Of a stretch of 64,000 nucleotides of DNA, positions 17,064 to 58,600 are shown one piece after another. Every line of letters starts with the position of its first letter. The first letter of the stretch is position 1. The stretch spans positions 3,434 through 67,433 of the forward strand of contig CAKPCH010000006.1 in NCBI GenBank assembly GCA_934141535.1. The letters run 5' to 3'. The position numbers and the translations under genes were made by a program. Source of the stretch: an uncultured Bacilli bacterium. Its GTDB lineage: Bacteria; Bacillota_I; Bacilli_A; RF39; UBA660. The notes under the pieces were generated by a model that had not been told where the DNA came from, ran no database searches, and worked only from the letters and a program-made list of their open reading frames with translations.

Positions 17064-17095
17064 GTATGAAAAAAGCAAGTATAAATTTACTTGCT
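17064..17095 (-). terminator. Rho-independent terminator ending the minus-strand non-coding transcript
   Basis: Perfect 9-bp stem AAGCAAGTA/TACTTGCTT with a 6-nt loop, followed on the minus strand by TTTTTT. Confidence 0.55.
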
Positions 17096-17684
17096 TTTAA
17101 TGGCGTTAATACAGTTAATTTTACGTCTTAGGTCAAGTTGGATTTCCCTAGATTAATACTTATCGTTACCAATAAGCGGTTCCCCTTTAAACAATCCAGT
17201 ATATAGTTACCTAATATACTACTTGATTACCACTTAGTACGCACTGTAATCCCATACTAACAACATTCTAGAAGATTTCCTCACCAATTAATTTATTATT
17301 AATTCTTTTTTGCAAACGATATTTCAAATTGTACTTTATGTAAGTTCTAGCTATAAACTTACTTAAAATATTAATTCAATTATCCCTATCATTCACTCAA
17401 GACAAGCTACGCTACCCATAACTTTCGCCACAAGGTAGGTTTAATCCTATTTCGTACTAAGTCCATCAGTATTCACGTATAGGCAAAACACGATAATAGG
17501 TCTCCACGGATGGTGGGTCATTTACATATGCCATTATGGATGCCCAACTATCCTCATTTCCAGCACTCACCCCAATCTGGGCGAAAGAAGCAAGCACAAG
17601 AAGTTTCACAGGTATGCTCTTTAACGGATTTTTAGCCCCGTCTTCGTAATAAATCGATTGACTAGAATAATGTGCCATCGATAT
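17096..17684 (-). ncRNA. Candidate structured non-coding RNA of unknown class (about 600 nt)
   Basis: Region between a consensus promoter and an intrinsic terminator. No ORF of 60 aa or more in any frame except one 77-aa ORF whose start lies upstream of the predicted TSS. GC content is about 40-45 percent against about 25 percent in the flanks. It contains GNRA-like loops (GCGAAAG, GGAAAUG). Confidence 0.4.
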
Positions 17685-17689
17685 CAACA

Positions 17690-17718
17690 ATTTTAGCAAA
17701 TTTTTAGATATTTGTCAA
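17690..17718 (-). promoter_or_regulatory. Consensus sigma-A promoter driving the candidate ncRNA
   Basis: Minus strand: TTGACA (17718-17713), a 17-nt spacer, then TAAAAT (17695-17690). The TSS is predicted near 17684. Confidence 0.5.
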
Positions 17719-43305: not shown

Positions 43306-43617
43306 TTAATTTAGAATGTTTTTAATATCAATTTTTTGATATAAAACTCTAACAACAGTAATTATTTTATCATTTTCATTTATAGTGTAAAACATAAGAA
43401 AATTTTTAACCTTAACACTTCTATAAACGTTTTTTAATTTTGATGTTGAACTATATTCAGATGAACTATAAGGAAACTCTAAGATACTACGTGCACTATT
43501 AATAAAGCACTTAGATAAATTAATTGCCGCAGTACTATTTTTTAGATTATTAGAAATATAATATATAATATCATCCATATCTTTTTTTGCTATTGGCAAA
43601 AATTCTAATCTATACAT
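43306..43617 (-). CDS. Type II toxin, RelE/ParE family
   Basis: 103 aa. RelE/ParE fold features (YRLEFLPIAKKDMDDI...KNFLMFYTINENDKIITVVRVL). Sits directly downstream of a small antitoxin-like gene, 2 nt apart. Confidence 0.65.
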   Translation of the reverse strand: MYRLEFLPIAKKDMDDIIYYISNNLKNSTAAINLSKCFINSARSILEFPYSSSEYSSTSKLKNVYRSVKVKNFLMFYTINENDKIITVVRVLYQKIDIKNILN

Positions 43618-43618
43618 G

Positions 43619-43951
43619 TTACTCCTTGTTAATTATACTATTCATACTTTTTTCAATATCATCTATATTATATCTTTTTGATGTATTATTCATTTCACTT
43701 TCTGCTTCCTTTAATTTATTATAAATAACTTCATCAGATAAACCAGACTTTACCTCGAATGGTAATTTTTGTTCTCGCAATACTGCTTTTATAAATATAT
43801 TAATAGCAGTTGAAACGTTCATACCAACATTATTACAAAATTGTTCAAAATTTTTTTTATCATTTGCATCTACTCTAACATTTAACGTTAATGATTCCAT
43901 ACTATCACTCTCTTCTAATAAAAGTATACTCTTTTTTGCAAACATTGTCAA
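43619..43951 (-). CDS. Type II antitoxin, RelB/DinJ-like
   Basis: 110 aa with an RHH-like N-terminal segment (LTLNVRVDANDKKNFEQFCNNVGMNVSTAINIFIKAVLREQKLPFEV), typical of DinJ/RelB. Confidence 0.6.
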   Translation of the reverse strand: MTMFAKKSILLLEESDSMESLTLNVRVDANDKKNFEQFCNNVGMNVSTAINIFIKAVLREQKLPFEVKSGLSDEVIYNKLKEAESEMNNTSKRYNIDDIEKSMNSIINKE

Positions 43952-45146: not shown

Positions 45147-45212
45147 TTTATCACCTATATAAGTCTATTTTATTTAAAGTAAAATATTAAAAAAAGATAG
45201 AAAACTATCTTT

Positions 45213-45479
45213 TTACATATTATTAAACATATTTCCTTGGCATCCACCACAATCATTATTAACTACTACATTTTCTTCATCACATGTATATTGTGGAGTA
45301 TAAGTATGTGTATATATATGTTTATTTATAACATGAGTATGTATTGGGCAGCAATGTTTTACTTCATGATGAAATTCTTTTTCTACACATTTAGTTATTG
45401 TAGGCTCCATAATTGGTTGTTCCATTATAGGTTGTTGTCTATTACACCCACAACCACAATTTCTATTAAAAAACATCAA
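45213..45479 (-). CDS. CotD-like Cys/His-rich spore coat protein
   Basis: 88 aa, His/Cys-rich (HHEVKHCCPIHTHVINKHIYTHTYTP), recalling B. subtilis CotD. Has an N-terminal CGCGC. Confidence 0.5.
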   Translation of the reverse strand: MMFFNRNCGCGCNRQQPIMEQPIMEPTITKCVEKEFHHEVKHCCPIHTHVINKHIYTHTYTPQYTCDEENVVVNNDCGGCQGNMFNNM

Positions 45480-45548: not shown

Positions 45549-46913
45549 TTATAAATTATTATCACTTGTATTTTCTAAAATATACTTTATTTTTTCTATT
45601 ATATTATTAATATAATACAGTCTCATATCATCTAATATTTTATTTACTACTTCTATAGATATTTCTCTTTCACTTTTATTAGTAGTATCAAAAAATAATA
45701 AATTAATATTTTGATTTTTAGATAATTCTTTCATATTAAATAATGATGTATTATACTCATCAACATTCTTTTGATTTAAAAAATTTCTTTTTTCAAGTGA
45801 TATATTAGTATAATAATCTCTTTTTAAACAAGTAATACTATCAGTATAAAGTGCAAGTACTATATTTATCTTAGATTTAATAAGTGGTATATATTTATTT
45901 TTATATTTATTATATTCAATAAATGTTAATCCGTTTTTTAAATACAATCTATCTACCCATATTAATCTATCAAAAAGTGATCTATCTATAATTATTATAT
46001 CTTTATCTTTTTTTAGTGATTCATTTAATTGTCTTAATGTGTATTTAGGTATTTCAAAATTTACAACATTCGTATATTCATTTTTTAGTTTTGGATATAT
46101 TTTTGTTTTATATTTTATAGATGTTGTAAATTCTTGAATTACTTCACAATCAAATTGTGCTTTTATAAAAAAATCTTTTATATTTTTTATTAAAGTTGTT
46201 TTACCTGTTCTTGGAGTTCCTGTAAATTCTATTACATAAGGTTTAAGATCAAATACTGATTTTAATTTTTTTATTTCTAATTTTTTAAAATGTAATTTTA
46301 ATACTTTTTTATATTCTTCTTCATTATCTTTATAAATTATATTTTTTACATATTCATCATTCTTTTTGTCATAGAATATGTAATCTATTAATTCTTTTAA
46401 TTTAACAAACATTGGATGTTTAAAGTCTTCATTATATATTAAACTTTCATAAAGATTAGTAAAATACCATTTTTGATCTTCAAATCCTCTATTAAAACTA
46501 CTAAAATCATATTTATTATTTTTTTCAAAGAAAATAATCATATCTTCAAGATTACTAATTTTATCTGCACAACATATTGCCTTATGTCTTAAATCTAAAG
46601 TTTTAATAGTGTCTATAGTATATTTCTTTCTATCTTCCCAAGATAAGCTTTTATCAATTTCAGTATCGCCTAATACAAGTGATAAAATATCTTCACCAAA
46701 CAATTCTAATATATCATCTTTTGTGTATTTAGTATCTTCTATTACATCATGAAGGATACCTGCGGCAATTACATTATCATCAAATTGATATTCTTTTAAT
46801 ATATCTCCTACATCCAAAGGATGTATTATCATTGGTTTATCTTTTTCAGTTTTCCTAACTTGATTAAAATGAGCTTTTATAGCAAATTCTTTAGCTCTCT
46901 TTATTATATCCAT
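45549..46913 (-). CDS. Fusion protein: (p)ppGpp-hydrolase-like HD domain plus P-loop nucleotide/nucleoside kinase-like domain
   Basis: 454 aa. The N-terminus carries the RelA/SpoT-type HD signature (AHFNQVRKTEKDKPMIIHPLDV...AAGILHDVIEDT). The C-terminus has Walker A FTGTPRTGKTTL and Walker B-like IIIIDRSLFD. There is an AGGTGA RBS. Confidence 0.7.
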   Translation of the reverse strand: MDIIKRAKEFAIKAHFNQVRKTEKDKPMIIHPLDVGDILKEYQFDDNVIAAGILHDVIEDTKYTKDDILELFGEDILSLVLGDTEIDKSLSWEDRKKYTIDTIKTLDLRHKAICCADKISNLEDMIIFFEKNNKYDFSSFNRGFEDQKWYFTNLYESLIYNEDFKHPMFVKLKELIDYIFYDKKNDEYVKNIIYKDNEEEYKKVLKLHFKKLEIKKLKSVFDLKPYVIEFTGTPRTGKTTLIKNIKDFFIKAQFDCEVIQEFTTSIKYKTKIYPKLKNEYTNVVNFEIPKYTLRQLNESLKKDKDIIIIDRSLFDRLIWVDRLYLKNGLTFIEYNKYKNKYIPLIKSKINIVLALYTDSITCLKRDYYTNISLEKRNFLNQKNVDEYNTSLFNMKELSKNQNINLLFFDTTNKSEREISIEVVNKILDDMRLYYINNIIEKIKYILENTSDNNL

Positions 46914-46940
46914 AACGTCACCTATTTAATTATAATATTT

Positions 46941-46975
46941 AAGCACCAAAAAAGCAACGATCCTGATAAAATCAT
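46941..46975 (-). terminator. Terminator-like hairpin in the 5' leader of the HD-kinase gene (possible attenuator)
   Basis: Minus strand: AAGCAATGAT-loop-ATCAGGATCGTTGCTT followed by TTTTTT, about 30 nt upstream of the start codon and inside a 460-nt non-coding leader. Confidence 0.35.
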
Positions 46976-47374
46976 TGCTTTTGAGTTTAGAAAATTACAA
47001 CTTCGTATTATCAGTAAAAAGTGTAATCATCTACCATTGAAGTTTTCTTTCTTCTTACAATTGTAACGTTTAGAGTTGGCAGAATAACCTATAACACTTT
47101 AGTGAATGTAGTCATATAACATAAAATGTGTTATACAACTTTTTCACTAAGTGTTTATTAAAGATATTTTTTAATAGTTATTTTTTTATTATATTTACTC
47201 AATTATTTTATTTAATAATTGATATAATTTCTTAACTATTTTTTATATCATCTCTAAACTATATTAAGTATACTATATAAATTTATTTTTGTCAACATTT
47301 TTTTATCTAAAACTGATAATAAGCCATTTCAGACTACAAGCAACCTAAAATGGCTTATTTTTAATATAATTGTA

Positions 47375-47617
47375 ATGGTGTTTGTTATGAATAGATTAAA
47401 AGATTTAAGAGAAGATAATGACTTATATCAAAAAGATATTGCTAAAATACTTAATATATCTCAAACGGGATATTCAAAATATGAAACTGAGACAAATGAT
47501 ATACCTACAAATATTCTAATTAAACTTGCCCTATTCTATGAAACTAGTACAGATTACATTCTAGGATTAACAAACGAGAAAAAAATTCAATATAAAAGAA
47601 ACAATATAGTAAAATAA
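47375..47617 (+). CDS. XRE-family HTH transcriptional regulator
   Basis: 80 aa with a Cro/C1 HTH (LYQKDIAKILNISQTGYSKYE). Convergent with the HipA-like gene. Confidence 0.75.
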   Translation: MVFVMNRLKDLREDNDLYQKDIAKILNISQTGYSKYETETNDIPTNILIKLALFYETSTDYILGLTNEKKIQYKRNNIVK

Positions 47618-47647
47618 AGGCTTAAAAAAGTCTTTATTTTGTTTTTA
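47614..47647. terminator. Bidirectional terminator shared by the convergent HTH and HipA-like genes
   Basis: ATAAAGGCTTaaaaAAGTCTTTAT: a 10-bp stem with one G-U pair, an A-run before and a T-run after. Confidence 0.4.
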
Positions 47648-48803
47648 TAATGGTCTTTAATTTATTTATTCTACTTAATAATAAAGTACATAATTTATTA
47701 ATTCTTCTATCTGTCATTTTAGTAACACTTTGATATTTATGTAGTAAATTATCAAAATCTTCTTCTATTCCATCTAATTTAGATAAGTCAATTCTTTTTA
47801 TATCTTTTACTTTGGAAATAATTGAATCAAAATTATCTACTGTGTAGAAAAATCTTCCTTGACCATTTATAATTAATTCTTCATCATTATAATCTAAAAT
47901 ATTTAAAGATTGACCATTATCAAATATAGGAGCAATATCTAACCATCTTAAAGTATTAACATCTCTTATTACTCCAAAATTGTTTAAATGCCTGTCTTCA
48001 TTTAAAATTAAGTAGTCAAGAATAAACATATTTTCTAATTTTTCACGTACATCACTAATTCCTTTTTCTTCTAAAATATTAATATATTCCTCATATGCTT
48101 TTTCTTTTTCTATATTTTTATATAAGACTTGTTGTGCTGGAATTAATTCAGTATTACTATTAATAAAGCATTCACACTTAGAAACTACTTTTTCATTTAC
48201 AACATCTATAGTATATGTTACATGACAAAATCCAAGTTTTTCACATATCATACTTGCTAAAACTTCATTAAATGGTTGCATAACTTCATTTTTATAAGCT
48301 CCCTTTAATAAATACCTTTTATTATTTTCAATAATCCATGTTTTTTTTAATCTACCATCCGTAGTATTATTTGGAGATATTAAATTAATTTTTGTACTAG
48401 TGTCTAATTCATTACCAAATGTTGCATTAGTAAATTCTGAAGCATCAAAATCATGTTCAAAAAAATTTATATCATTATATTTTATATTAGAACCTGCTTG
48501 TTTTACCCAATATTGGTCAGATAGTGATAAGGCAAATGCTTTATCTAATAAGTCATCTGGTGAAGTAACATTTAATTTAGCAAGTAATAAATCTAAATCA
48601 TCTCTCCAAGATGGGATTCCCCTACCTTTAAACCAATCAGTAAGTATTGGTGTAATATCAATATTCTTAGAAAAACTATTATATATAATTAATGGAGCAT
48701 ATTCAATATTTTTAGTTTCATATATCTTAGTAAATACTTTTAATACTTCATTATATTCTGCAACTAATATTTCAGTATTTTTATTCATTAATATACATTT
48801 CAT
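47634..48803 (-). CDS. HipA-like Ser/Thr kinase (type II toxin HipA family)
   Basis: 389 aa. The C-terminal catalytic motifs match HipA_C (ILNEDRHLNNFGVI, then APIFDNG). Confidence 0.6.
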   Translation of the reverse strand: MKCILMNKNTEILVAEYNEVLKVFTKIYETKNIEYAPLIIYNSFSKNIDITPILTDWFKGRGIPSWRDDLDLLLAKLNVTSPDDLLDKAFALSLSDQYWVKQAGSNIKYNDINFFEHDFDASEFTNATFGNELDTSTKINLISPNNTTDGRLKKTWIIENNKRYLLKGAYKNEVMQPFNEVLASMICEKLGFCHVTYTIDVVNEKVVSKCECFINSNTELIPAQQVLYKNIEKEKAYEEYINILEEKGISDVREKLENMFILDYLILNEDRHLNNFGVIRDVNTLRWLDIAPIFDNGQSLNILDYNDEELIINGQGRFFYTVDNFDSIISKVKDIKRIDLSKLDGIEEDFDNLLHKYQSVTKMTDRRINKLCTLLLSRINKLKTIIKTK

Positions 48804-48899
48804 AGCTTCACCTCTATAGATATTTTACCATGATTTTATTTTATTTTCTATGAATTTATATCTATATAAATAAAATTTTAAAAACAAATAAAATAAAGT

Positions 48900-49844
48900 T
48901 TATTTAATAACATGTTTATCGGAAATAACCTCTGGATTTAAAATAATTATAGATTTAAGATTTTCGATTTCTTGTATCTGTTCTTTTAAACCTATCATTT
49001 CTTCCTTATTAGTTTTTATAGAAAGTAATTCATTATTGCTTTTTGTATTATCGTTTTCTAAATTATTTTTAAAAATTTTACCTGGTAATTCAATATGATT
49101 ATTATTCCAAAGCTCATTATTTTTCCTATCAACAATACACATATAATCTATTATATTCTCTTCAAAACCATTCATATATATAACGTTTATACTATCCGGT
49201 AGTGTTTCAACGGAATAATCATGAAAGCTTTTTGGAACTTTTCTTATTATATGTTCGCTATTTCTCATGATTGTACTTCTTAAAACACATGCTTCATAAG
49301 AAATGTTTTTATTTGTTGAAACAAACACAATTATATTTCTATAATTATTTTTTTTCAAATCTCGCAAACATTTTAAAGGTCCAACAGGTTCTCTCATACC
49401 CCATTCAATAATCATATTATATGAATTTTCTTTTCCCATTTCAATTAATTTATCAGTCATAGCACCTGCAAAAAAGTGGGTAAAATCAGCTATATCATTA
49501 CCTGGCGTATCATTTACAGTTTCTTTTCTATCTTTCCAATGTTCTTTAATACATTCTTCAATTTCTAAATATCTTGGATGATACATTCTATAATTATCTA
49601 TACCTATTTCAATTGCATTTTTTAACTCATTTTTTAAATTCATTGAAAGTACAGTTTTACCACTACCAGGTTGTCCACCTATAAAAATTGAATAAGGATT
49701 ATTTGTTGTAGAACAACCACGTTTTAAATGTTCAAATGCTAATTTACTAATTCTATCTAGTTCTACTTCTGTAAAACTAGATAATCTCATAACATCTTCT
49801 TTAGAATAACCTCTTTTTATCAAAGCTTCTAATCTACTATTCAT
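48900..49844 (-). CDS. Zeta-toxin family kinase (UDP-GlcNAc kinase-like)
   Basis: 314 aa. Walker A GGQPGSGKT and colinear matches to the streptococcal zeta toxin as I recall it (DNYRMYHPRYLEIE; FAGAMTDKLIEMG..YNMIIEWGMR). Confidence 0.85.
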   Translation of the reverse strand: MNSRLEALIKRGYSKEDVMRLSSFTEVELDRISKLAFEHLKRGCSTTNNPYSIFIGGQPGSGKTVLSMNLKNELKNAIEIGIDNYRMYHPRYLEIEECIKEHWKDRKETVNDTPGNDIADFTHFFAGAMTDKLIEMGKENSYNMIIEWGMREPVGPLKCLRDLKKNNYRNIIVFVSTNKNISYEACVLRSTIMRNSEHIIRKVPKSFHDYSVETLPDSINVIYMNGFEENIIDYMCIVDRKNNELWNNNHIELPGKIFKNNLENDNTKSNNELLSIKTNKEEMIGLKEQIQEIENLKSIIILNPEVISDKHVIK

Positions 49845-50082
49845 TAATAATTTCCTCTATTCTATTTATAGTATACATAATTATTTTTTTATAATTATTA
49901 ACTTTATTTATTTCACTACATATTCTAACCTTATCTTCATAAAAAGTAAGTTCACTAAGTAGTTTTTTTAGTTCTAAATTATTCTCTGATTTATTTATAC
50001 TTAAAGCAAATATATTTTCACAATATTCTATAATACTTTCCTTCATAACATTAATATTCATATCATCACCATTTTTATACAA
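49837..50082 (-). CDS. Candidate epsilon-like antitoxin for the zeta toxin
   Basis: 81-aa predicted helical protein directly upstream of the zeta gene and overlapping it by 8 nt. No detectable sequence signature; assigned by position only. Confidence 0.4.
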   Translation of the reverse strand: MYKNGDDMNINVMKESIIEYCENIFALSINKSENNLELKKLLSELTFYEDKVRICSEINKVNNYKKIIMYTINRIEEIINE

Positions 50083-50105
50083 TAAAGAAGATACTATATA
50101 AGTAT

Positions 50106-50411
50106 CTATTCTATATCTAAATTCATATCACCATTATTAATTTTATCTACTACATCCTTTAATTTTGGTTGCAATTCTTTCCATTCTTCATTAGCATATC
50201 CCATGTAATATACATCTTTTATTTGATCATGATTAAATAATAAATTTTGATCTGATCTAATAACACCTGCTGGATAAATACAACCTATGTAATCAAACAT
50301 CTTATCTCCTGATTCTTTTCCCTTAGCTGCAAAACCTATAATCATAACTTTTCTTGTAGCTTCTTTAAGTAAGCACACAGTACCTATTGGCAAATATTTT
50401 TCTTTATTCAT
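50106..50411 (-). CDS. DUF4176-like protein (T7SSb-associated)
   Basis: 101 aa with the N-terminal KYLPIGTVCLLKEATRKVMIIG pattern typical of DUF4176 proteins found in LXG/T7SSb toxin loci. Confidence 0.55.
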   Translation of the reverse strand: MNKEKYLPIGTVCLLKEATRKVMIIGFAAKGKESGDKMFDYIGCIYPAGVIRSDQNLLFNHDQIKDVYYMGYANEEWKELQPKLKDVVDKINNGDMNLDIE

Positions 50412-50439
50412 TATTATTCTCCCTTAACTCTTATTAAAC

Positions 50440-50817
50440 TCATAAATGTTTAGCCTCAAAAACTTCGGTTGGTTTTTCTCCTTGTAAATATAATCTATAC
50501 TCCTCGTCTGAAAAACCATACTCAATAATGTTTGATGGAATATACATCATTTTAGCTAAAGCAACAATTATAGCATTTTTTGTAAATGGACCATTCACCA
50601 ATAAATTAAATCTATCATCAACACGATAAATATACCAATTATTATTTTTATTATAGCATCCTATTGCACCTGGCTTGTTTACACAATTATTTATAAATAA
50701 ATTATCAGGTTCTATTTTCTCGTCAGGGTTTTCTAAGTTGTATAGATAAATATACCTTCCCAAAATATTTCTTATTTCTAGTTCTTCATTTTTTATTTTT
50801 AAATTTTGTTCTTCCAT
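50440..50817 (-). CDS. Candidate immunity protein for the upstream polymorphic toxin
   Basis: 125-aa cytoplasmic ORF immediately downstream of the toxin gene (18-nt gap). Assigned by position only. Confidence 0.4.
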   Translation of the reverse strand: MEEQNLKIKNEELEIRNILGRYIYLYNLENPDEKIEPDNLFINNCVNKPGAIGCYNKNNNWYIYRVDDRFNLLVNGPFTKNAIIVALAKMMYIPSNIIEYGFSDEEYRLYLQGEKPTEVFEAKHL

Positions 50818-50835
50818 ATTTTTCCTCCTCTTTTA

Positions 50836-52605
50836 TTAAAATGTTATGCTTCTTAAATCAGTAATAATTCTAGCTCTTTTTAGTGTTCCAAATGAAAATA
50901 TTGAATTCATTTGACCTGCTTCTCCATCCATTTTAACTGATAAAGTTGCCCAAGAAGCTGCTTTGCCTGAATACCCATATTTAGATTGTTGGTTTGGTTT
51001 TAAAACTTCATTTAATCCACCATTTCCACCTATTTCTGGAAGAGAATCAAATGAATTAAAATCTCTTATCATTGCTTCAGCAACTTCTTCAGAATACCCT
51101 AAATTCACTAATCGTCTGACTTTTGAAATATCATCTACAGTACCAGAGCAAACATCTATTGCCTCTATATATTTATTTCCATCAAATATACCTGCTGTTC
51201 CATTAGATGAAGACGATGGTAAACTTCTTTGTGAAGATGTTGATTCCCAATCAGTACCTAACGCATGTCCTCCATCACCGCCTACTCTACTAACTTTTAT
51301 TTTACCATCTGGGTAAGAATCTATTAAAGTTTTAAGTGATCCAATAGTCTCTGGATCATATCCAGCATGATCAGGCCATTTTAAGTTAAAATTAGCTGTC
51401 TTGTACTCAGAATTATACCCTTCGAACTTAATAAATTCAGCTGCATTTTTGCTAGTTATAAGATCGTATGTTTTTAAATTACTTTTAAAATATTTATTAT
51501 CACTATTTTCAACAACACTATATACTTGTTTACTACTCAGGCTTTCAAAACGTCTTTGTAATTCTTGAATACTTTTAGCATCAAGATTTTCCATATTATT
51601 TATATTATCATAAACTTTCTTATAATTATTATATCCTTTAATACCATTATAACCAGTACTAACTCCACCTATTGTACCTGCCATTGCAGTTTGTAATAAA
51701 GCACCAGATTTTTTATAATAATCCCAAAATCCATTATATAATAGATTCCCGTTTTCATCAACAACATCTTCTCCATAAGTAATATATTGAATACCTGAAT
51801 TTAAAACTGGTTCTGCTGCTGATACTCCAGCTCCAGCTAATGTATATCCAACTACACCAGCAAGAGAAGTAGCACCTTTTGCTGCCACTTGAACTTCTTT
51901 TAATGCCCCTCCAGATGCTGCTCCTATAACTCCTGCCACAGTTCCACAAGTAAATGCTTGATCAAAATTTGCTCCACTACTTAGTGCCATTTCTGAGGCA
52001 CTTCCTGCTGCAGTAACAGCTCCTACTGTTGCAGTTACTACCGCTCCACCTGGCACACATGAAAGAGCAATATAAGCTGCCGTTGTTCCTACCATACTAC
52101 CAGCTGTATGAACCCAACTATGGGCTATATCTTGATCTACTCCTTGAAATTTTATTGCTTCATCATAAAGTGCTTCAGTCCAATCATATGCAACTACATT
52201 ACCAGTACTTTCTTTAATTTCTAAAGCTTTATCTTCATCCCAAATAGATACAACGCCACTTGCTATAGCACCACCAGCCATAATCAGGGCATCTCCAACA
52301 TTTTCTACTAATTCCAAAACACCAAAAGTAAGAGAAGTTTGAAATGTTACTCCATAATCTCTTATTGTTTTTAGAACATTGAAAGCACTCTCATACCATT
52401 CTTCTTGATCAAGTGATTTTGCTTTTTCTATTGACTCTTCTAAATCAATTTTATTATAATCTATATCTTCATATTTATAATAATTATCTGAGTCTATTTT
52501 AGAATCACTATAAAATTTATTTTTAAATACATTATTAGTATTATTAGCTTTAACATTATAAGATTTAACGCTATTTAATTTTATTGCTGTACTTCCAAAA
52601 TTCAC
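50836..52605 (-). CDS. Polymorphic toxin-like secreted protein with Gly/Ala-zipper hydrophobic segment and C-terminal putative toxin domain
   Basis: 589 aa. GTG start at 52605 with an AAGGAA RBS 7 nt upstream. Residues 100-280 form a G/A/S/T/V-rich stretch with repeated small-xxx-small spacing. The C-terminal 200 aa are globular (KWPDHAGYDPETIG...VSRVGGDGGHALGTDWESTSSQR). Confidence 0.55.
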   Translation of the reverse strand: MNFGSTAIKLNSVKSYNVKANNTNNVFKNKFYSDSKIDSDNYYKYEDIDYNKIDLEESIEKAKSLDQEEWYESAFNVLKTIRDYGVTFQTSLTFGVLELVENVGDALIMAGGAIASGVVSIWDEDKALEIKESTGNVVAYDWTEALYDEAIKFQGVDQDIAHSWVHTAGSMVGTTAAYIALSCVPGGAVVTATVGAVTAAGSASEMALSSGANFDQAFTCGTVAGVIGAASGGALKEVQVAAKGATSLAGVVGYTLAGAGVSAAEPVLNSGIQYITYGEDVVDENGNLLYNGFWDYYKKSGALLQTAMAGTIGGVSTGYNGIKGYNNYKKVYDNINNMENLDAKSIQELQRRFESLSSKQVYSVVENSDNKYFKSNLKTYDLITSKNAAEFIKFEGYNSEYKTANFNLKWPDHAGYDPETIGSLKTLIDSYPDGKIKVSRVGGDGGHALGTDWESTSSQRSLPSSSSNGTAGIFDGNKYIEAIDVCSGTVDDISKVRRLVNLGYSEEVAEAMIRDFNSFDSLPEIGGNGGLNEVLKPNQQSKYGYSGKAASWATLSVKMDGEAGQMNSIFSFGTLKRARIITDLRSITF

Positions 52606-52619
52606 ATTATCATTCCTTA

Positions 52620-53897
52620 CTAACTATGTCCAACAAAATCCCCTATCTTTGTTTCAGTAGTTTTATATGAATCTACTTTTATACTAGAATTTTTTATATT
52701 TCCTAAGTTTATCTTAGTATCATCTTCTTTTATATCTACATTATCATTTAAATTAAAAGTACTATTATCTTTAAAATCTATATTAGTAGTTTTTGTATCA
52801 TAATTATTTATATTATTAGTTAAATTATTTAAATCTTTATTATATTTATAATTAATATTATTATCACCACTTGAATAACTAGTTACATTATTTTTTATAT
52901 TATTAAAATCATCATCAATTTCAAATAGTATATCTTTTCTTTTTGCTTGAGTTTTATTAACATTATCAGTTAAACTATTTATATCTTCTAAATCTATATT
53001 ATTTATTGAAGTTGATTTATTAGAAATAGAATTTATATTATTATTAAGCCCTTTAATATCTTCTTCTTTTAATTTATCAATAGCCGTATTATTAGTCATA
53101 TAACTATTTAAATTATTATTTATTCCTTTAATTCTTTCTTGTTTACTAAATTCTATATTATTGTTATTCTGATAACTATTATTAATATCACTTGATAATT
53201 TATTATTTACTTCTATGTTTTTATTTATTTTATTATCCACTGTATTTGATATGGATAAAGTACGATCTAAATCTTTTTTCATAACTCTCATATCATTTAA
53301 TTTCCAATTATAATTAGATACTTTTAAATCAAACTCATATCCTTTTTTTCTTGTTAATCTAAATCTTGAATTATATAATTCATTATTAATACTTCTAGTA
53401 AAATTATCTATTGTATTTAATAAATTACTAGTTAATTTTTTTATATTTTTTATCTCATTTCTTAATGTATAGATAAGATTTATATTTTCAAAATCTGTAC
53501 CAAATTTATTTATATTTATATAATTTAAACTATTATTCATAAGTGCGATTATATTATTTAAATTTCTTTTACAATCATTAATTTTATTATCGTCAAATTT
53601 AAAAGTTGTAAAGTTTCTTTTATATCCATATTTATAGCATATATTATCTATATTATTTTTAAATGTTTCTATTTCTGTATATAATCCATCTAAATAATTA
53701 AAATAATTATTTAATTTATACTTATCTTTTTTTACCTTATCTAGGAATGAATATGAATTTGTATCATTCCATGAATTTTGTGTATATGAAAGTCCTCTAT
53801 ATACATAAGATAAATCGTTTAATATATTTTTTTTATAGTATCTATATCTATCTATATTATTGTTTATATTAGGTATATTTAGTTTAAAATAAGTCAT
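52620..53897 (-). CDS. Asn-rich low-complexity protein of the T7SS substrate operon
   Basis: 425 aa, about 25 percent Asn, predicted helical/coiled-coil with no TM helix. Has an AGGTGAT RBS and is preceded by a 71-aa helical ORF. Confidence 0.45.
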   Translation of the reverse strand: MTYFKLNIPNINNNIDRYRYYKKNILNDLSYVYRGLSYTQNSWNDTNSYSFLDKVKKDKYKLNNYFNYLDGLYTEIETFKNNIDNICYKYGYKRNFTTFKFDDNKINDCKRNLNNIIALMNNSLNYININKFGTDFENINLIYTLRNEIKNIKKLTSNLLNTIDNFTRSINNELYNSRFRLTRKKGYEFDLKVSNYNWKLNDMRVMKKDLDRTLSISNTVDNKINKNIEVNNKLSSDINNSYQNNNNIEFSKQERIKGINNNLNSYMTNNTAIDKLKEEDIKGLNNNINSISNKSTSINNIDLEDINSLTDNVNKTQAKRKDILFEIDDDFNNIKNNVTSYSSGDNNINYKYNKDLNNLTNNINNYDTKTTNIDFKDNSTFNLNDNVDIKEDDTKINLGNIKNSSIKVDSYKTTETKIGDFVGHS

Positions 53898-53905
53898 TAT
53901 ATCAC

Positions 53906-54121
53906 CTACATATTACCTATTTTAGGTATTATTTTATTATTTAAATTACTGATTTGATTATTTATTTTATTATTTATTGTATTAATTGAATTAGTACAAA
54001 AAGTCTCATTGTTTATAATTATTGAATCAGCTAATATTTTTTTTACTTCATTTAAATTGTATTTAGCACTATTTAAGTTTGCTTTAACCCTTTTCATATT
54101 TCTTATTAATTCATCATTCAT
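53906..54121 (-). CDS. Small helical protein (candidate T7SS substrate chaperone/adaptor)
   Basis: 71 aa, predicted single helical hairpin, GGAGAAG RBS. Its stop overlaps the RBS of the next gene. Confidence 0.4.
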   Translation of the reverse strand: MNDELIRNMKRVKANLNSAKYNLNEVKKILADSIIINNETFCTNSINTINNKINNQISNLNNKIIPKIGNM

Positions 54122-54199
54122 ATTATCTTCTCCATTTTTAGATAAAGGTTATCTTTTTATAACAGCCCTTATCTAAAAATAGTAATAAAATTACTATTT

Positions 54200-54934
54200 T
54201 TAACTCCATCTTGAAGAGCCTAAATCATTTAATGAAGCATCTACATTACTGCTAGCTTGAGTAAATTGTTCTTTAATATCGTTTGTAGCACCTATATAAC
54301 TAGTTCCAGCTAATGCATCTAAAGCATCATTCATATCTTTAATAGCAATTGTAACTTCTGCTATAGCTCTACCCACTTGTTCTACATATGCTTTTATACT
54401 AGAAGTTTGTTCTCCAAAGAAAGCTTGATTTGCATCTATTTCTTGGAAAAGTCCTTCTGTTTTCTTTTTGATTTCACCAACAAAAGATACAACTGCCTCT
54501 TGAATAGCTGTTTTACTTGAATTATCTTTTAAACCTCTATCATCAGAATTACCTATTGTTCTTATTCTAGGTTTAATTATTTGTTCATTTTTATCTACTC
54601 TTGGTACATCTATTTTAAATCTTCCTTTACCTTCTGCCATACTTCCATCTAATGTATTTCTTTGTTGAAAATCATACCAAGATTGAGCCAAACCTGCTAT
54701 TGTATTTAAACAATTTTCAGTTAAACTAGAAGCATTTACATAAAGAGTGCAAATACGTGTTGCTAAATTTTTTTCAAAGCTTTGTTCATCCTCTCCTACC
54801 CAATTCTCTTGAAGAACATTTGCCACACTATTCCATTGTTCTCTTGTATAAATTCCTAAATTTTTATAAGCACTTGCTATTTTATCCATTAAATCATTTG
54901 CTTGCTTTACATTATAACCTATTGCGAATGCCAT
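54200..54934 (-). CDS. Extended WXG100-like protein (candidate T7SS substrate)
   Basis: 244 aa. Residues 40-55 read LQENWVGEDEQSF, which matches the EsxA W-x-G loop (AANWEGQAFSRF in S. aureus EsxA as I recall it) at the same distance from the N-terminus. A helical C-terminal extension of about 140 aa follows. Confidence 0.5.
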   Translation of the reverse strand: MAFAIGYNVKQANDLMDKIASAYKNLGIYTREQWNSVANVLQENWVGEDEQSFEKNLATRICTLYVNASSLTENCLNTIAGLAQSWYDFQQRNTLDGSMAEGKGRFKIDVPRVDKNEQIIKPRIRTIGNSDDRGLKDNSSKTAIQEAVVSFVGEIKKKTEGLFQEIDANQAFFGEQTSSIKAYVEQVGRAIAEVTIAIKDMNDALDALAGTSYIGATNDIKEQFTQASSNVDASLNDLGSSRWS

Positions 54935-54946
54935 ATTCTTACCTCC

Positions 54947-55249
54947 CTATAAAATATTAGAATTCATATGATTAATTTGTGATTTTAAATGTTGATCTTG
55001 ATTTATATAACTATACTTAACTAAATAAAGTATATCCGAATAATTTTCTATCATTTTTGATATGGTATCTATATTTTTTTTCTCTTTCTGTGGCTCAATA
55101 AAAAGAAATTCTAAACTAGTACCACTATAACATTTATCTAATTCATTAATAGTTTCTATTAATTTAGTCTTACTTGTATTAAATGAATTAAGATACATAT
55201 TATTTTTTTTTATAAGTGAATCTATATTATCAACATTAACACCTATCAT
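54947..55249 (-). CDS. Small helical protein, first gene of the substrate operon
   Basis: 100 aa with a GGGAGGA RBS. Starts just after the esaB terminator. Similar in size to WXG100/Lap-type helpers but contains no Trp. Confidence 0.4.
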   Translation of the reverse strand: MIGVNVDNIDSLIKKNNMYLNSFNTSKTKLIETINELDKCYSGTSLEFLFIEPQKEKKNIDTISKMIENYSDILYLVKYSYINQDQHLKSQINHMNSNIL

Positions 55250-55362
55250 ATAATCCTCCCAAGTAGCATGCTTTCTCTTACTCTTGCTACTATAAAAATT
55301 ATAGATTAATTATATGTCGTTTTTGTTGCTTAACCTATATTGGAATATGATATGCCTATTTT

Positions 55363-55388
55363 GGTATAAAAAAAGGCTTAAAGCCTTT
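55363..55388 (-). terminator. Intrinsic terminator immediately downstream of esaB
   Basis: Minus strand: AAAGGCTT-ta-AAGCCTTT followed by TTTTT. It separates essC-esaB from the substrate/toxin genes. Confidence 0.55.
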
Positions 55389-55389
55389 C

Positions 55390-55644
55390 TTAAATTAATA
55401 TTAATTTTTTATCATTTTTTATGTTTGTATCTCTAATTATTAATGATATATCATAAACAAGTGAAGTATCGGGATCTAATAAATAATGTTTTTTATCTAA
55501 ATCAAAATTTGAATCTGATAGTTCATATACTGATTTTAAAATAAGTTCTAAAACTTTATTTACCGTTTCATTAGTTGGAATATATATTTCATAGTACTCA
55601 TCAATATTAGGAATATATACATTAACAAGAACCTTATTCTTCAT
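55390..55644 (-). CDS. esaB: YukD/EsaB-like ubiquitin-fold protein
   Basis: About 85 aa from the Met of MKNKVLVNVYI. The beta-grasp pattern and C-terminus (IIRDTNIKNDKKLILI) match B. subtilis YukD (GITNGDRLEIL) as I recall it. Immediately downstream of essC. Confidence 0.65.
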   Translation of the reverse strand: MKNKVLVNVYIPNIDEYYEIYIPTNETVNKVLELILKSVYELSDSNFDLDKKHYLLDPDTSLVYDISLIIRDTNIKNDKKLILI

Positions 55645-58600
55645 CTTCTCTAACCTTCTTCCCAACTATCTTAATAAGTTCTGCTTCACCATTTTTAGCA
55701 ACCCATGCATATTGTTTATCGATAACCTCTTTAAATCTATTATTATAATCGTTACAACTTATAACAGTTTGTTCTATAAATCCATTTCCTACCCATATAC
55801 CATTAGAATTATTAGTAATATCAGAATACCAATTCTCAAAGCTAACTTTCTTTAATTTGAAACTAGAATCTACAAATAATAAATTAACATTTGGTAGTGT
55901 TTTTATTCCTTTAAAGAAACCATTAAATTTTTTATCATTCATACTACCTTGAAATTTTTCAAGGCCTGCTATTATACATAGTACCTTAACATTTTTTCCA
56001 TCTATTTCTTTATCTAGAAATTGTTCAAATCTAAGTATAAATTCTTCAAAATTTTTATCAGCATACGTATTAACAGTTCCACCTAACTCTACTAATTCTT
56101 GTTCTGTATCTATTAAAACTACCATGTTACCAAGTTTTCTTGTTCCATATATTATAGTTTTTAATAAATCAATGCAACTTTTAACATCTTTAGAACTAAT
56201 AATGGTTGCTTTATCATTAAAGAAATTATAACCCATTACTTTTAAATTACGTTTTATCATACCTATTGGTAAATTATTAATGTTAGTAATAGACGAATCT
56301 AAATCCTCAATTGTCAATTCTTCTTTTAGTACAGGAATACTAGGAGCACTATTTTTACTTACTTTTAATACTTGATTTATTCTATTTTTGACAAACTCAA
56401 CTAAATTATCCTGATTAGTAACTTGAGCAGTTTGAAACTCATAAACTTCTTCATTTCTATAAAGTCCTCTACCATCATATGATGCTGGATATACATTGCC
56501 TATTTTTCCTAATATATCAATATAATCACTTTTATCTGGCATATCAAGTACAAAAGTATGATTAAAATTGCGTTCTATTTTACTATATATACTATGAGAA
56601 TTCGTAGCACTTATTATAAATATTATTCCATATCTTTCTCCTTCACGAGTAAGTTTAATTAATATATCTTCCAAAGAAGAATAAGACTCCTTAAATGAAT
56701 CATAATTATTTATAATAATTAATTTTATAGGTACTCTTTTACCACTATTTTTTATATAGTTTTTATACTCTCCATTATAATCAGCAAATAACTTTTTACG
56801 TTCTTTTATTTCTTCATTAATAAGACCAATTAGTTTTAATAATTTATCTTTTTCACTAGCATATACAATATCTCCAACTTGTGGAAATTTTTCATACATT
56901 CTTAACGATTCACTACCAAAGTCTATAATATATATATTTATATCGCCTGCTAAATGTTTTATACATAAAGAATATATTATAGATGATAAAAACATTTCTC
57001 TATTTGTACCAGATGATCCATATACTAAAGTATTTGCCTCATCATTTAGTTTAAGAGTTAATATATCTTGATATTGTTTAGATGGTGCATCATACTCTCC
57101 TATAATCGCCTCAACTTCATTTGATTTAAAATTATATTTATTTATAATATCATCAACATATATATCTTTTTCTATAGCATCCAACCATAAATTTTTAGTC
57201 TTTATGTTTTCTTTATTAGCTAAAGTACATATATATTTCATTATATTTGATAATTCATCACCATTATCTACTTTTTTAACTTCCTTAGTGTTTGCTACAT
57301 TTTTAATTACTTGACCTACATTATCTATTATTGATATTGATCTGTCATATTTTTTCTTTACCTGATCAGTAGCAAAATATGGCATACCAGCATACCCAGA
57401 TTGACCTAAAACAAATATTTCATCATTACCAACCTGAAGATAAAATCTACCTGCATTAGTGATATCTGCTGCTTCCGGACGTTTTAACATTTCATGTGAA
57501 TCTGATTTGTCTTGAACTTTTAGACAAACTCTAAATTTAGTATTTGACCAAATTTGATCATTAACAACACCACTTGGTTTTTGTGTTGCAAGTATTAAAT
57601 GTACACCAAGTGATCTACCTATACGAGCAGCTGAAATTAAATCATCCATAAATTCTGGTTGCTGTGCTTTTAATTCAGCAAATTCATCGCTTATTATGAA
57701 TAAATGTGGCATAGGTTCTTTTATTTTGCCTTCTCTAAAAAATTTCTGATATTTATATATATCTATTGTACTTTCTCCTAGTTTATCTCTTACTTCATTA
57801 AATACTTTTTGTCTTCTCTTAAGTTCACTATCTATACTTACTAAAGTTCTATTTAATGAAGCTTTATCTAAGTTTGTTATAGTACCTGCAAGATGTGGTA
57901 ATCTATACCCTTGAGTTTTATTTTCAAAAGCACCTGCAAGTCCTCCACCTTTGTAATCTATTAAAATAAACGCCACTTCATCAGGACTATAATTGATTAT
58001 CATGGATAGAATATACGTTATTATAAATTCTGACTTACCACTTCCTGTTGTACCTGCTATTAAGCCATGTGGTCCATGATACTTTTCATGCAAATCAAGC
58101 CATATAGGATTTCCTTCATCATTAATACCTACTTGAGCCCTTAATGACTTCATAGGATTATTAAGCCTCCATCTATTAAGGGCATTTAATTGTTCTACCT
58201 TACCAACATTATACATTTCTAAGAATCCTAAAGATGTTGGAAGTGATCTTAAATCTTCTACAAATTCTATTGGAATATTTGATAAAGTCTTAATACAATT
58301 TATCATGTTTATATTTGGATTTATTTCTTTAGTAAAACCTTGCTCATAATAATTATCCTTTTGTGTTGAAAGAATAGCTGCATTTCCTTGAAGTGATATA
58401 AAATTGACACATTCACTAGGCAATTTACCAAGTCTATTTTCAATACAAATTATACTAAAACCTAAATTTTGCTTATTATTTAAAATTTTATCAATAATAC
58501 CTATCTTTCTTATCATAGGATAATCATCCGTAATTATTAAGTAATATGGAGAATATGTATTATTTTCCTGAACTTCATTTTCAACTACATCAGCACTATC

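Follow-up and report, generated by a model that had tools for sequence, protein, structure and literature searches.

An alarmone-hydrolase-type HD_4 domain fused to a P-loop kinase domain behind a PGK-motif leader in an uncultured Bacilli bacterium

So far, small alarmone hydrolases (SAHs) have been described either as enzymes of one domain or as the N-terminal half of Rel/SpoT. By published phylogeny, Lmo0812 from Listeria was placed in the MixSpo/RelH subfamily of SAHs, and ATfaRel, an antitoxin of the toxic small alarmone synthetases (toxSAS), in the PbcSpo subfamily (PMC10434055). SAH antitoxins of toxSAS have been described, and stand-alone SAHs were shown to neutralise all toxSAS tested (PMC7229694). 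This paper will focus on a gene, here designated HD-kinase, which codes for an SAH-type domain followed by a P-loop kinase domain and which lies on a 64,000-nucleotide stretch of DNA from an uncultured Bacilli bacterium (GenBank assembly GCA_934141535.1, contig CAKPCH010000006.1, positions 3,434 to 67,433; this whole stretch is referred to as the window). To our knowledge, no deoxynucleoside kinase (dNK) has been known as a fusion with an HD hydrolase. While the hydrolase and the kinase belong to known superfamilies, their fusion is a conserved architecture for which no description was found, and HD-kinase stands for a conserved family of enzymes from AT-rich gut Firmicutes which is as yet unstudied.

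The gene is read from the minus strand, and its parts are as follows.

45549..46913 (-): HD-kinase open reading frame (ORF), 454 aa, ATG start
46918..46923 (-): ribosome-binding site AGGUGA of the HD-kinase gene, read from the sequence, 5 nt 5' of the ATG
46371..46913 (-): SAH (HD_4) domain of the RelH/MixSpo type, residues 1-181
46248..46370 (-): helical linker, residues 182-222, with AlphaFold2 (AF2) helices at 187-193 and 198-220 and a predicted local distance difference test score (pLDDT) of ~86-94
45552..46247 (-): P-loop kinase domain (AAA_28) with a deoxynucleoside/thymidylate-kinase fold, residues 223-454

The locus is one intact gene for a single two-domain protein. The initial annotation of the sequence had recognised a RelA/SpoT-type HD hydrolase and a P-loop kinase by their motifs, and these motifs are all present: H15-x-x-Q18-x-R20-K21, H31-P-L-D-V and I-L-H55-D56-V-I-E59-D60-T for the hydrolase, and F-T-G-T-P-R-T-G-K238-T-T and I-I-I-D310-R-S-L-F-D for the kinase. 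A Pfam search assigned HD_4 and AAA_28, both above the cut-off. Two objections had been foreseen, namely an HD domain devoid of its metal-binding His and Asp and a frameshift that joins two genes artificially. The metal ligands are present, and the frameshift or two-gene artefact was ruled out by homologues of 443-455 aa with both domains, which align end to end. The ribosome-binding site is kept in the homologous locus L008, as AGGUGG.

In a search of 5.8 billion proteins, 1166 relatives of HD-kinase were identified. The best 120 of these 1166 have a length of 443-455 aa and a query coverage of 94-100%, nearly all contain both Pfam domains, and the sole name found among them is 'HD domain-containing protein [Bacilli bacterium]'. 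A literature search returned nothing on an SAH-kinase (HD_4 plus AAA_28) architecture, nor on the PGK RNA described below, the original description of that motif lying outside the coverage of the search. This is in line with the initial annotation, to which the architecture was not known as a described family. Homologues which keep the fusion are typically ~444 aa long, and the identity within the family is 62-66% across many species. The second search, of 1.84 billion representatives at 50% identity, gave 95 matches with E <= 1e-30, among which ~35 are full-length two-domain proteins, down to 26-33% identity; stand-alone SAHs and stand-alone kinase domains were also identified among these representatives. 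A scan of genome contigs with the single protein gave one distant HD match only.

An alignment of 57 close homologues showed a mean column identity of 72%. Invariant in the hydrolase domain are H15, Q18, R20, K21, H31, P32, H55, D56, E59, D60, T61, D117 and N121. Invariant in the kinase domain are the Walker A sequence G232-T-P-R-T-G-K-T239 (GTPRTGKT, residues 232-239), F262-T-T-S265, D310, R311, D315, R316, R365 and R376, with E260 and E261 being nearly invariant (at least 90%).

For the hydrolase domain, the Pfam family HD_4 (PF13328) was matched by residues 7-125 (E 4.9e-14, 52.8 bits against a cut-off of 27.2), and of the NCBIfam profile spoT_relA the hydrolase part alone was matched, by residues 8-123 (E 5e-22). 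When a profile of the family was compared to Lmo0812 (4YF1), an E-value of 1e-46 was obtained over residues 3-181, which correspond to the whole SAH protein. A Foldseek search of the PDB with the N-terminal part identified 4YF1, RelH 7QOD and 7QOE with target-normalised template modelling (TM) scores of 0.85-0.92 (0.86-0.92 for 4YF1); other fold matches were Mesh1 and the hydrolase domains of Rel/SpoT. The residues H31, H55-D56, D117, E59-D60, R20-K21 and N121 align with those of Lmo0812 and Mesh1. Judged by sequence, the hydrolase is closest to the MixSpo/RelH group with Lmo0812 and not to the PbcSpo antitoxin group. With 454 aa and a C-terminal kinase, the protein is neither small nor single-domain in the sense in which SAHs were defined.

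For the kinase domain, Pfam AAA_28 was matched by residues 228-327 (E 2.4e-8, 34.8 bits against a cut-off of 27). The AF2 model of HD-kinase, built on the alignment, has a pLDDT of 90.7 and a predicted TM score (pTM) of 0.89. With its C-terminal part, Foldseek identified the Giardia deoxyadenosine kinase (dAK) 8PUU, human thymidylate kinase (TMPK) 1E98, deoxycytidine kinase (dCK) 1P60, 2CCG and 1OE0, at E-values of 1e-5 to 1e-4 and target-normalised TM scores of 0.56-0.73; the matches include Drosophila dNK. A profile of the kinase domain only, made from 18 diverse sequences, matched 8PUU with an E-value of 1e-7, the Mycoplasma deoxyguanosine kinase (dGK) 2JAQ with 1e-4 and TMPK with 1e-3. In these 18 sequences the Walker A residues G38, G43, K44 and T45 (numbering of the domain alignment) are invariant. 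In comparison to 8PUU, E261 takes the place of the 'EP' glutamate, the catalytic base in dNKs, and D310-R311 and R365 coincide with the DRS motif and the lid arginine, respectively; this alignment suggests the corresponding catalytic roles for these residues. The linker is kept in the stand-alone kinase relatives, the matches of which begin at ~residue 181-198.

The thresholds of the curated dNK and Thymidylate_kin profiles were not reached by HD-kinase, for which AAA_28 alone passes; a Thymidylate_kin match (0.0035) was obtained in one stand-alone kinase relative only. In a library of viral structures, dNK and dTMP kinases were matched by the kinase part, and the PHROGs labels for the two halves are 'phosphohydrolase' and 'thymidylate kinase'. 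The P-loop segment locally resembles NTPases of the SRP54/FtsY type, which was taken as a similarity of the P-loop class, since by its fold and its distal motifs the domain is a kinase. A ribosylnicotinamide kinase of the NadR type was considered and rejected, with no PDB sequence match at E <= 10 and weak viral fold matches only. The Pfam search gave no match to Zeta_toxin (PF06414) in HD-kinase. The kinase domain resembles deoxynucleoside and thymidylate kinases, not zeta toxins.

In the clade of the window both active sites are intact. Among divergent members, the two-domain architecture is kept while the Walker A motif is lost in P0141, P0153, P0165, P0176, P0193 and P0247, and HD or ED residues are lost in P0190, P0247 and P0125; these proteins are candidate pseudoenzymes. 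The kinase domain was also identified in other combinations. In P0201, which has no SAH, its fusion partner is another kind of HD hydrolase (PF01966 type), and in P0121 an HD domain of this type is placed before SAH and kinase in a three-domain protein of 644 aa. The PF01966-type HD domain of both is distantly related to the uncharacterised PDB entry 2PQ7. The kinase domain thus partners repeatedly with phosphohydrolases, and its fusion also to a second, different HD hydrolase argues for a functional partnership of kinase and phosphohydrolase.

Upstream of the gene, the initial annotation had described a leader of 460 nt with a terminator-like hairpin and had taken this as a hint at attenuation. 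This leader corresponds to the 461-nt intergenic region 46914-47374, which extends to a divergent XRE gene, and it contains the following elements.

47267..47295 (-): predicted sigma-70-type promoter TTGACA-17-TATACT, the best-scoring site, 11 of 12 consensus positions
47091..47266 (-): AT-rich 5' portion of the leader, preceding the structured motif
46997..47093 (-): PGK-motif RNA (Rfam RF03040) with the helices P1, P2 and P3, from the Rfam match and our own model R1
46983..46988 (-): AAACUC box just 5' of the terminator, repeating the 3' strand of P2
46948..46982 (-): intrinsic terminator/attenuator, stem 46978-46971 with 46961-46954, U6 at 46953-46948

The suspicion of attenuation was strengthened by the presence of a curated cis-regulatory RNA family, PGK (RF03040), together with the terminator. 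PGK is the one cis-regulatory family found by Rfam in the region. It was matched by cmscan at 47001-47090 (-) over the full model (1-92) with 64.8 bits, compared to a gathering score of 50.8, and an E-value of 2.8e-7; the covariance model R1 gave 77.2 bits for the motif of the window. In P1, UCUGCC pairs with GGUAGA, which differs from the common CUUAUC/GAUAAG by compensated changes; the loop of P2 is AGAAAGAAAA, and that of P3 is CUGAUAA at 47014-47008. The motif is located 88 nt upstream of the ATG of HD-kinase on the same strand, with the terminator in between. The terminator has the stem GCAAUGAU/AUCGUUGC and the apex UUUAUCAGG (UUAUCAG, 46969-46963), which is complementary to the P3 loop. 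Its U6 ends at 46948, 34 nt 5' of the ATG, close to the ~30 nt given for the hairpin in the initial annotation; it folds with -15.2 kcal/mol (z = -4.4), a stability reached by none of 200 shuffles. A simple consensus terminator scan did not list this hairpin, presumably because the pairing of the A-tract with the U-tract consumes the required T run. The terminator is held to be real because of its folding and the covariation in 53 homologous terminators, described below.

From the promoter, a consensus match, a 5' untranslated region (UTR) of ~345 nt is predicted. The promoter is kept in the homologous leader of locus L119 as TTGACA-17-TAAACT, and positions 47304-47154 of the window are 69% identical to 1235-1377 of L119. 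The AT-rich 5' part gave no Rfam match at E <= 1. A perfect 12-bp inverted repeat with an 18-nt spacer (AATAAGCCATTT ... AAATGGCTTATT) was identified at 47318-47359. It is located between the XRE gene, which starts at 47375 (+), and the promoter of HD-kinase, beyond the leader portion that is homologous to L119, and might serve as an operator for XRE or as a terminator for both directions.

PGK-type leaders have also been identified elsewhere. Metagenome contigs were scanned with the pattern AGAAAGNAAACT-N(15-40)-TACTGATAATA, which gave at least 120 loci. In an alignment of 40 non-redundant copies, 95.6% of the cells are paired and 12 of 16 pairs have compensatory changes, a level reached by 0 of 500 shuffles, with 35-47% of cells paired in slid controls. 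A covariance model from this alignment identified 130 PGK copies among the loci collected. BLASTP was used to group the first ORFs 3' of the pattern matches, and for five of the groups a representative was examined by Pfam. Among the matches listed, to which all of the following counts refer, the Pfam-confirmed downstream genes code for phosphoglycerate kinase (13), MurG (9), Fic-domain proteins (6), LtaS-like sulfatases (4) and MTS methyltransferases (4), so that pgk accounts for 13 of 88 first downstream ORFs. ClpB, EssC and HU were identified by eye only, three CotD-like proteins by BLASTP grouping with the Pfam-checked cotD-like protein of the window, and several families of small proteins are without assigned function. 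HD-kinase was found downstream of 0 of 127 pattern matches. Since PGK copies precede many unrelated genes, none of which is HD-kinase, the leader is considered a gene-unspecific, lineage-wide element.

Two ideas on the leader were discarded. One was that the PGK motif is named after genes of the HD-kinase type, with 0 of 127 matches preceding HD-kinase and 13 preceding pgk. The other was that the leader is a feature of the whole HD-kinase family; among the HD-kinase loci examined, Rfam and R1 found PGK only in the window (and in L012, from the same contig) and in L139.

At the 3' side, the conserved element extends beyond the helices. The sequence AAACU[C/A/U][G/A] follows 50 of 60 leaders of class 1 and 22 of 22 leaders of class 2. 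In class-1 copies, the AAACUC(G/A) box lies ~19 nt before the terminator apex UUAUCAG, the exact complement of the P3 loop CUGAUAA, and TTATCAG was found within 230 nt after 51 of 60 class-1 leaders, compared to 6.9% of background windows of 230 nt. The stems of 53 distinct homologous terminators are diverse yet paired; 88% of the cells are paired and 168 are compensatory, and the score for covariation is 0.667, compared to 0.213 in shuffles. Since these stems covary, the terminator is counted as belonging to the conserved element. Covariation has no bearing on the pairing of loop and apex, since the apex was chosen by pattern and the P3 loop does not vary, not even among variant copies. Class-2 copies contain a long extended P3 with the CUGAUAA loop, then AAACUCG and a generic terminator without a complementary apex. 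Since class 2 keeps CUGAUAA in the absence of such an apex, the P3 loop must have a role beyond contact with it.

The class-2 copies (L019, L021, L023, L028, L038, L044, L046, L052 and others) share a 5' ACUAGACUCUAUG element and score 37-56 bits with the class-1 model; in 20 loci they precede a family of ~125-aa proteins encoded ~0.4-0.55 kb downstream. Paired PGK leaders on the same strand, 0.3-1.3 kb apart, were identified in L030, L034, L039, L055, L074, L080, L086, L104 and L106, as successive small transcription units with one copy each.

Downstream of HD-kinase, a second gene and a hairpin were identified.

45213..45476 (-): cotD-like small Cys/His-rich gene (Spore-coat_CotD, E 1.5e-4), 69 nt 3' of HD-kinase
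45189..45214 (-): terminator-like hairpin with U7 at the end of the cotD-like gene (-10.4 kcal/mol, z -2.8)

No terminator was identified between the two genes in the window; HD-kinase and the cotD-like gene are probably cotranscribed. The position of the hairpin after the cotD-like gene is kept in L119, and it likely marks the end of the transcription unit. The absence of a terminator between the genes and the presence of one behind them suggest a single transcription unit gated by the leader terminator.

In the locus L119, promoter, leader, motif and terminator correspond to those of the window (69-83% DNA identity) and are followed after 48 nt by a cotD-like gene, which thus stands directly behind the leader and is 82% identical on the DNA level to the one of the window. 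The two loci differ by an indel of 1439 nt with the HD-kinase gene. The distant leaders L081 and L091 also precede cotD-like genes. L139, a 94% relative of the window, has the same leader, HD-kinase and the start of the cotD-like gene, inside which its contig ends. In L008-L011, which are 79% homologues, HD-kinase, the same spacer and a truncated cotD-like ORF are kept, and upstream only the 3' half of the terminator is left, fused to island DNA. L002/L004 have a cotD-like gene as well, at a distance of 2.7 kb 3' of HD-kinase. Since L008-L011 keep the remnant of the terminator and both genes, the arrangement of leader, HD-kinase and cotD-like gene predates the split of the window from the 79% clade. 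A clean recent insertion of HD-kinase between leader and cotD-like gene, as suggested by L119, is weakened by the 79% clade and by L002; the indel relative to L119 could have occurred in either direction.

The cotD-like gene itself was found broken after ~40 codons by DNA with a large serine recombinase in L008 (5406-8740) and L080 (112-2566, -). The insert in L008 also carries a Fic gene, and the halves in L080 are 2.2 kb apart. Such an interruption resembles the intervening ('skin'-like) elements of other spore genes, which act at the stage of sporulation.

The reading of the locus which we favour, with a confidence only somewhat better than even, is that HD-kinase is a bifunctional SAH and kinase which resets or salvages nucleotide pools and is expressed by read-through of the attenuator. 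Residues 1-181 would act as an Mn2+-type 3'-pyrophosphohydrolase of the RelA/SpoT family and degrade (p)ppGpp, pGpp and/or (p)ppApp, and residues 223-454 would act as an ATP-dependent P-loop kinase which phosphorylates a nucleoside or nucleotide. The enzyme would work alone, without a partner toxin, and the removal of alarmones would be coupled to the rebuilding or salvage of the nucleotide pool. Transcription would start from the sigma-70-like promoter at 47267-47295 and proceed through the ~345-nt leader with the PGK-motif RNA, where the transcript would either stop at the terminator 34 nt before the ATG or read through into HD-kinase and the cotD-like gene. The leader would thereby serve as a lineage-wide, gene-unspecific attenuator which answers some signal, the control of read-through being a prediction.

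Several points weigh against this reading. Both enzyme activities are inferred from sequence, and the promoter and the control of read-through are predictions. Enzymes of the SAH type can take other substrates, and structures of Mesh1 with NADPH and 3'-phosphoadenosine 5'-phosphosulfate (PAPS) were among the Foldseek matches. The hydrolysis of alarmones yields nucleotides and not nucleosides, so that a simple two-step pathway through both domains is not obvious. Given the loss of active sites in divergent members, the second domain may be regulatory and not catalytic in a part of the family. The leader is absent from most loci of HD-kinase homologues and hence gives no clue to the function of the enzyme. 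Finally, many homologues lie in variable, island-like neighbourhoods with type VII secretion system (T7SS) arrays, restriction-modification systems, recombinases, Fic and NERD, and such contexts agree with an accessory role in conflicts no less than with a housekeeping one.

The neighbourhoods can be described as follows. Among the homologues, HD-kinase was found 3' of ffh and 5' of a P-type ATPase gene; 2 nt 3' of a uracil-DNA glycosylase (UDG) gene and 5' of nrdD; amid genes for DUF4176, ADP-ribosylglycohydrolase, zeta toxin, Fic and a recombinase; 3' of a DUF6339 gene; 3' of a LysM amidase gene and beside a restriction-modification system; 3' of a Fic gene and 5' of a gene for a helix-turn-helix (HTH)-CYTH protein; and 5' of a NERD protein gene. 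No partner gene is common to ~10 homologue neighbourhoods. In the window, Pfam assigned among the 20 ORFs around HD-kinase an EssC-like FtsK/FHA ATPase, DUF4176, zeta toxin, HipA-like, XRE, RelB/ParE, sortase, FtsW and CotD-like proteins. Several of these belong to an array directly upstream of the leader.

47634-60220 (-): T7SS-like toxin/immunity array
55634-60220 (-): EssC-like FtsK/FHA ATPase gene of the array (Pfam)
50106-50411 (-): DUF4176 gene of the array
48900-50082 (-): small ORF and zeta toxin gene of the array
47634-48803 (-): gene for a HipA-like kinase, matching the PADLOC candidate PDC-M03A

The zeta toxin gene at 48900-49844 matched Zeta_toxin with an E-value of 4e-30. The array also encodes proteins of 589 aa and 425 aa without a Pfam or PADLOC match.

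Such surroundings might also be explained by acquired protection, an unlikely account which nevertheless carries real weight. HD-kinase would then be an accessory enzyme of the immunity type which detoxifies the (p)ppApp or (p)ppGpp produced by synthetase toxins, either injected or triggered by phage, with the kinase helping to restore the depleted adenine or guanine pool; since it would act on the product of the toxin, no cognate neighbour would be needed. The copy of the window and its closest relatives (79-100% identity) are located at the edge of a T7SS-type toxin/immunity array, which there includes the EssC-like ATPase, the 589-aa and 425-aa proteins, DUF4176, zeta toxin, HipA-like protein, ADP-ribosylglycohydrolase and Fic. 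Other homologues are located beside restriction-modification genes, AAA_15/21 ATPases, NERD and recombinases. The broad neutralisation of toxSAS by stand-alone SAHs, cited at the outset, is consistent with this proposal, and a P. aeruginosa SAH reportedly protects against the (p)ppApp synthetase toxin Tas1. However, no synthetase-like toxin was recognised nearby by Pfam and PADLOC in the window, and HD-kinase has its own promoter and leader, with the divergent XRE gene separating it from the array. The strong conservation (the 62-66% family identity and 72% mean column identity given above) is unlike that of fast-evolving immunity genes, and some homologues occur in plain housekeeping operons, namely after ffh and with UDG and nrdD.

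A much less probable proposal is a switch with opposing activities, in which the kinase adds a phosphate to the ribose of a nucleotide (3' or 2') and the HD domain removes it, so that HD-kinase would both make and break its product like Rel. The order of HD_4 and kinase mirrors the order of HD and synthetase in the long RelA/SpoT homologues (RSHs), and the kinase is recurrently fused to phosphohydrolases, be it an SAH, the other type of HD domain or the two together. As with RelA/SpoT paralogues, divergent members have lost one active site or the other, and the confident model of the domain arrangement (pTM 0.89) suggests a fixed orientation of the domains. Enzymes of the Mesh1 type, moreover, accept nucleotides phosphorylated at 2' or 3', as in the complexes with NADPH and PAPS. 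In contrast, the closest kinase relatives phosphorylate the 5'-OH of (deoxy)nucleosides or 5'-nucleoside monophosphates, and kinases of the ribose 3'-OH, like adenosine 5'-phosphosulfate (APS) kinase, match at the P-loop only; the proposal is a pure inference. Less likely still is its extended form, in which such an opposing pair would handle a ribose-phosphorylated nucleotide signal as a Rel-like switch free of a synthetase, with the PGK attenuator sensing a global nucleotide signal.

The framing of the initial annotation, a toxin-antitoxin module in which the kinase is the toxin or the HD domain serves as antitoxin against a toxic alarmone synthetase encoded nearby, draws on the existence of SAH antitoxins of toxSAS and on a window rich in similar pairs (RelB/ParE, zeta toxin preceded by a small ORF, HipA-like with XRE), but it is most improbable for a MixSpo/RelH-type and not PbcSpo hydrolase joined to a dNK/TMPK-like kinase which has neither a Zeta_toxin nor a PADLOC match and is strongly conserved, in contexts that include housekeeping operons. 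The toxSAS partner which it called for was found neither among the ORFs of the window nor in ~10 homologue contexts, and no conserved neighbour at all was found in either. In the window, no RelA_SpoT synthetase was identified by Pfam in the 20 neighbouring ORFs, within ~10 kb, where a too-divergent synthetase would escape Pfam, and none was identified in the precomputed Pfam matches of ~10 distinct homologue neighbourhoods. For the HD-kinase protein itself, PADLOC holds no match or model. What is left of the probability falls to something else, including a regulatory pseudo-kinase.

Three further observations were made in the window and its relatives. A RelB/ParE-type toxin-antitoxin pair is located at 43306-43951 (-), just 3' of ftsW. 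In L142-L145, where FtsW is 83% identical, ftsW stands in the context rny-spoU-rimM-trmD-...-PDZ-ftsW, and no HD-kinase, cotD-like or T7SS gene was found near it; because of this context, the arrangement in the window is considered a local rearrangement. At 17084-17694 (-), unrelated to HD-kinase, a full-length ornate large extremophilic (OLE) RNA (RF01071) was identified with 377.7 bits.

Uncultured AT-rich Firmicutes of gut and rumen contain the fusion in large numbers, with >1000 sequences at 90% clustering and ~35 full-length ones at 50%. The fusion points to an undescribed link of stringent-response nucleotides to nucleotide salvage, or to protection against alarmone toxins. While the organisms concerned are not yet culturable, the idea can be tested with one recombinant protein. 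Should the enzyme combine an ordinary SAH with an ordinary dNK, the result would be a useful annotation without surprise; to a specialist of the stringent response, the fusion would be worth a bench test without being startling. The locus also widens the gene set of the orphan PGK RNA motif, in which the 7-nt complementarity of P3 loop and terminator apex is a mutable feature that could guide the search for a ligand or mechanism.

At the end, a comparison to the known systems is presented. With the SAHs of the RelH/MixSpo type (Lmo0812 from Listeria, 4YF1; RelH from C. glutamicum, 7QOD; the Leptospira protein, 7QOE), HD-kinase shares the whole SAH fold over residues 1-181. Its hydrolase domain is 38% identical to Lmo0812, with all catalytic residues of the HD1-HD6 type present. 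However, these SAHs are single-domain proteins of ~185 aa, to which HD-kinase adds the helical linker and a kinase domain of 230 aa. With SAH antitoxins of the ATfaRel type (PMC7229694) the catalytic SAH domain is shared, and HD-kinase could in principle neutralise any alarmone-making toxin. It differs from them in that no toxSAS is adjacent, the hydrolase is MixSpo-like and not PbcSpo, a kinase is fused to it and the neighbourhoods are variable.

The kinase domain shares its fold with the dNK/TMPK family (8PUU, 2JAQ, human dCK, TMPK; TM scores of 0.6-0.73) and aligns with it at the P-loop, at the Glu that follows strand 2, in the D-R-S motif and at the lid Arg. In contrast, the similarity in sequence is marginal, with E-values of 1e-7 to 0.1 with the family profile, and Pfam files the C-terminal domain of HD-kinase under AAA_28 and not under dNK. 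The leader agrees with the PGK RNA motif (RF03040), an orphan cis-regulatory RNA of AT-rich gut-metagenome bacteria, in three covarying helices, the location in the 5' UTR and the terminator; it differs from it in that the copy of the window precedes the unit of HD-kinase and the cotD-like gene and not pgk. The 3' extension, consisting of the AAACUC box and the terminator with the complementary apex, lies outside the 92-nt Rfam model and is not claimed as new.

In comparison to the long RSH enzymes (Rel/SpoT), the second domain of HD-kinase is a P-loop kinase and not a RelA/SpoT synthetase of the nucleotidyltransferase fold, and the TGS and ACT regulatory domains are absent. Common to both systems is an N-terminal HD_4 hydrolase followed by a second catalytic nucleotide-binding domain, as is the loss of one of the two active sites in divergent paralogues.

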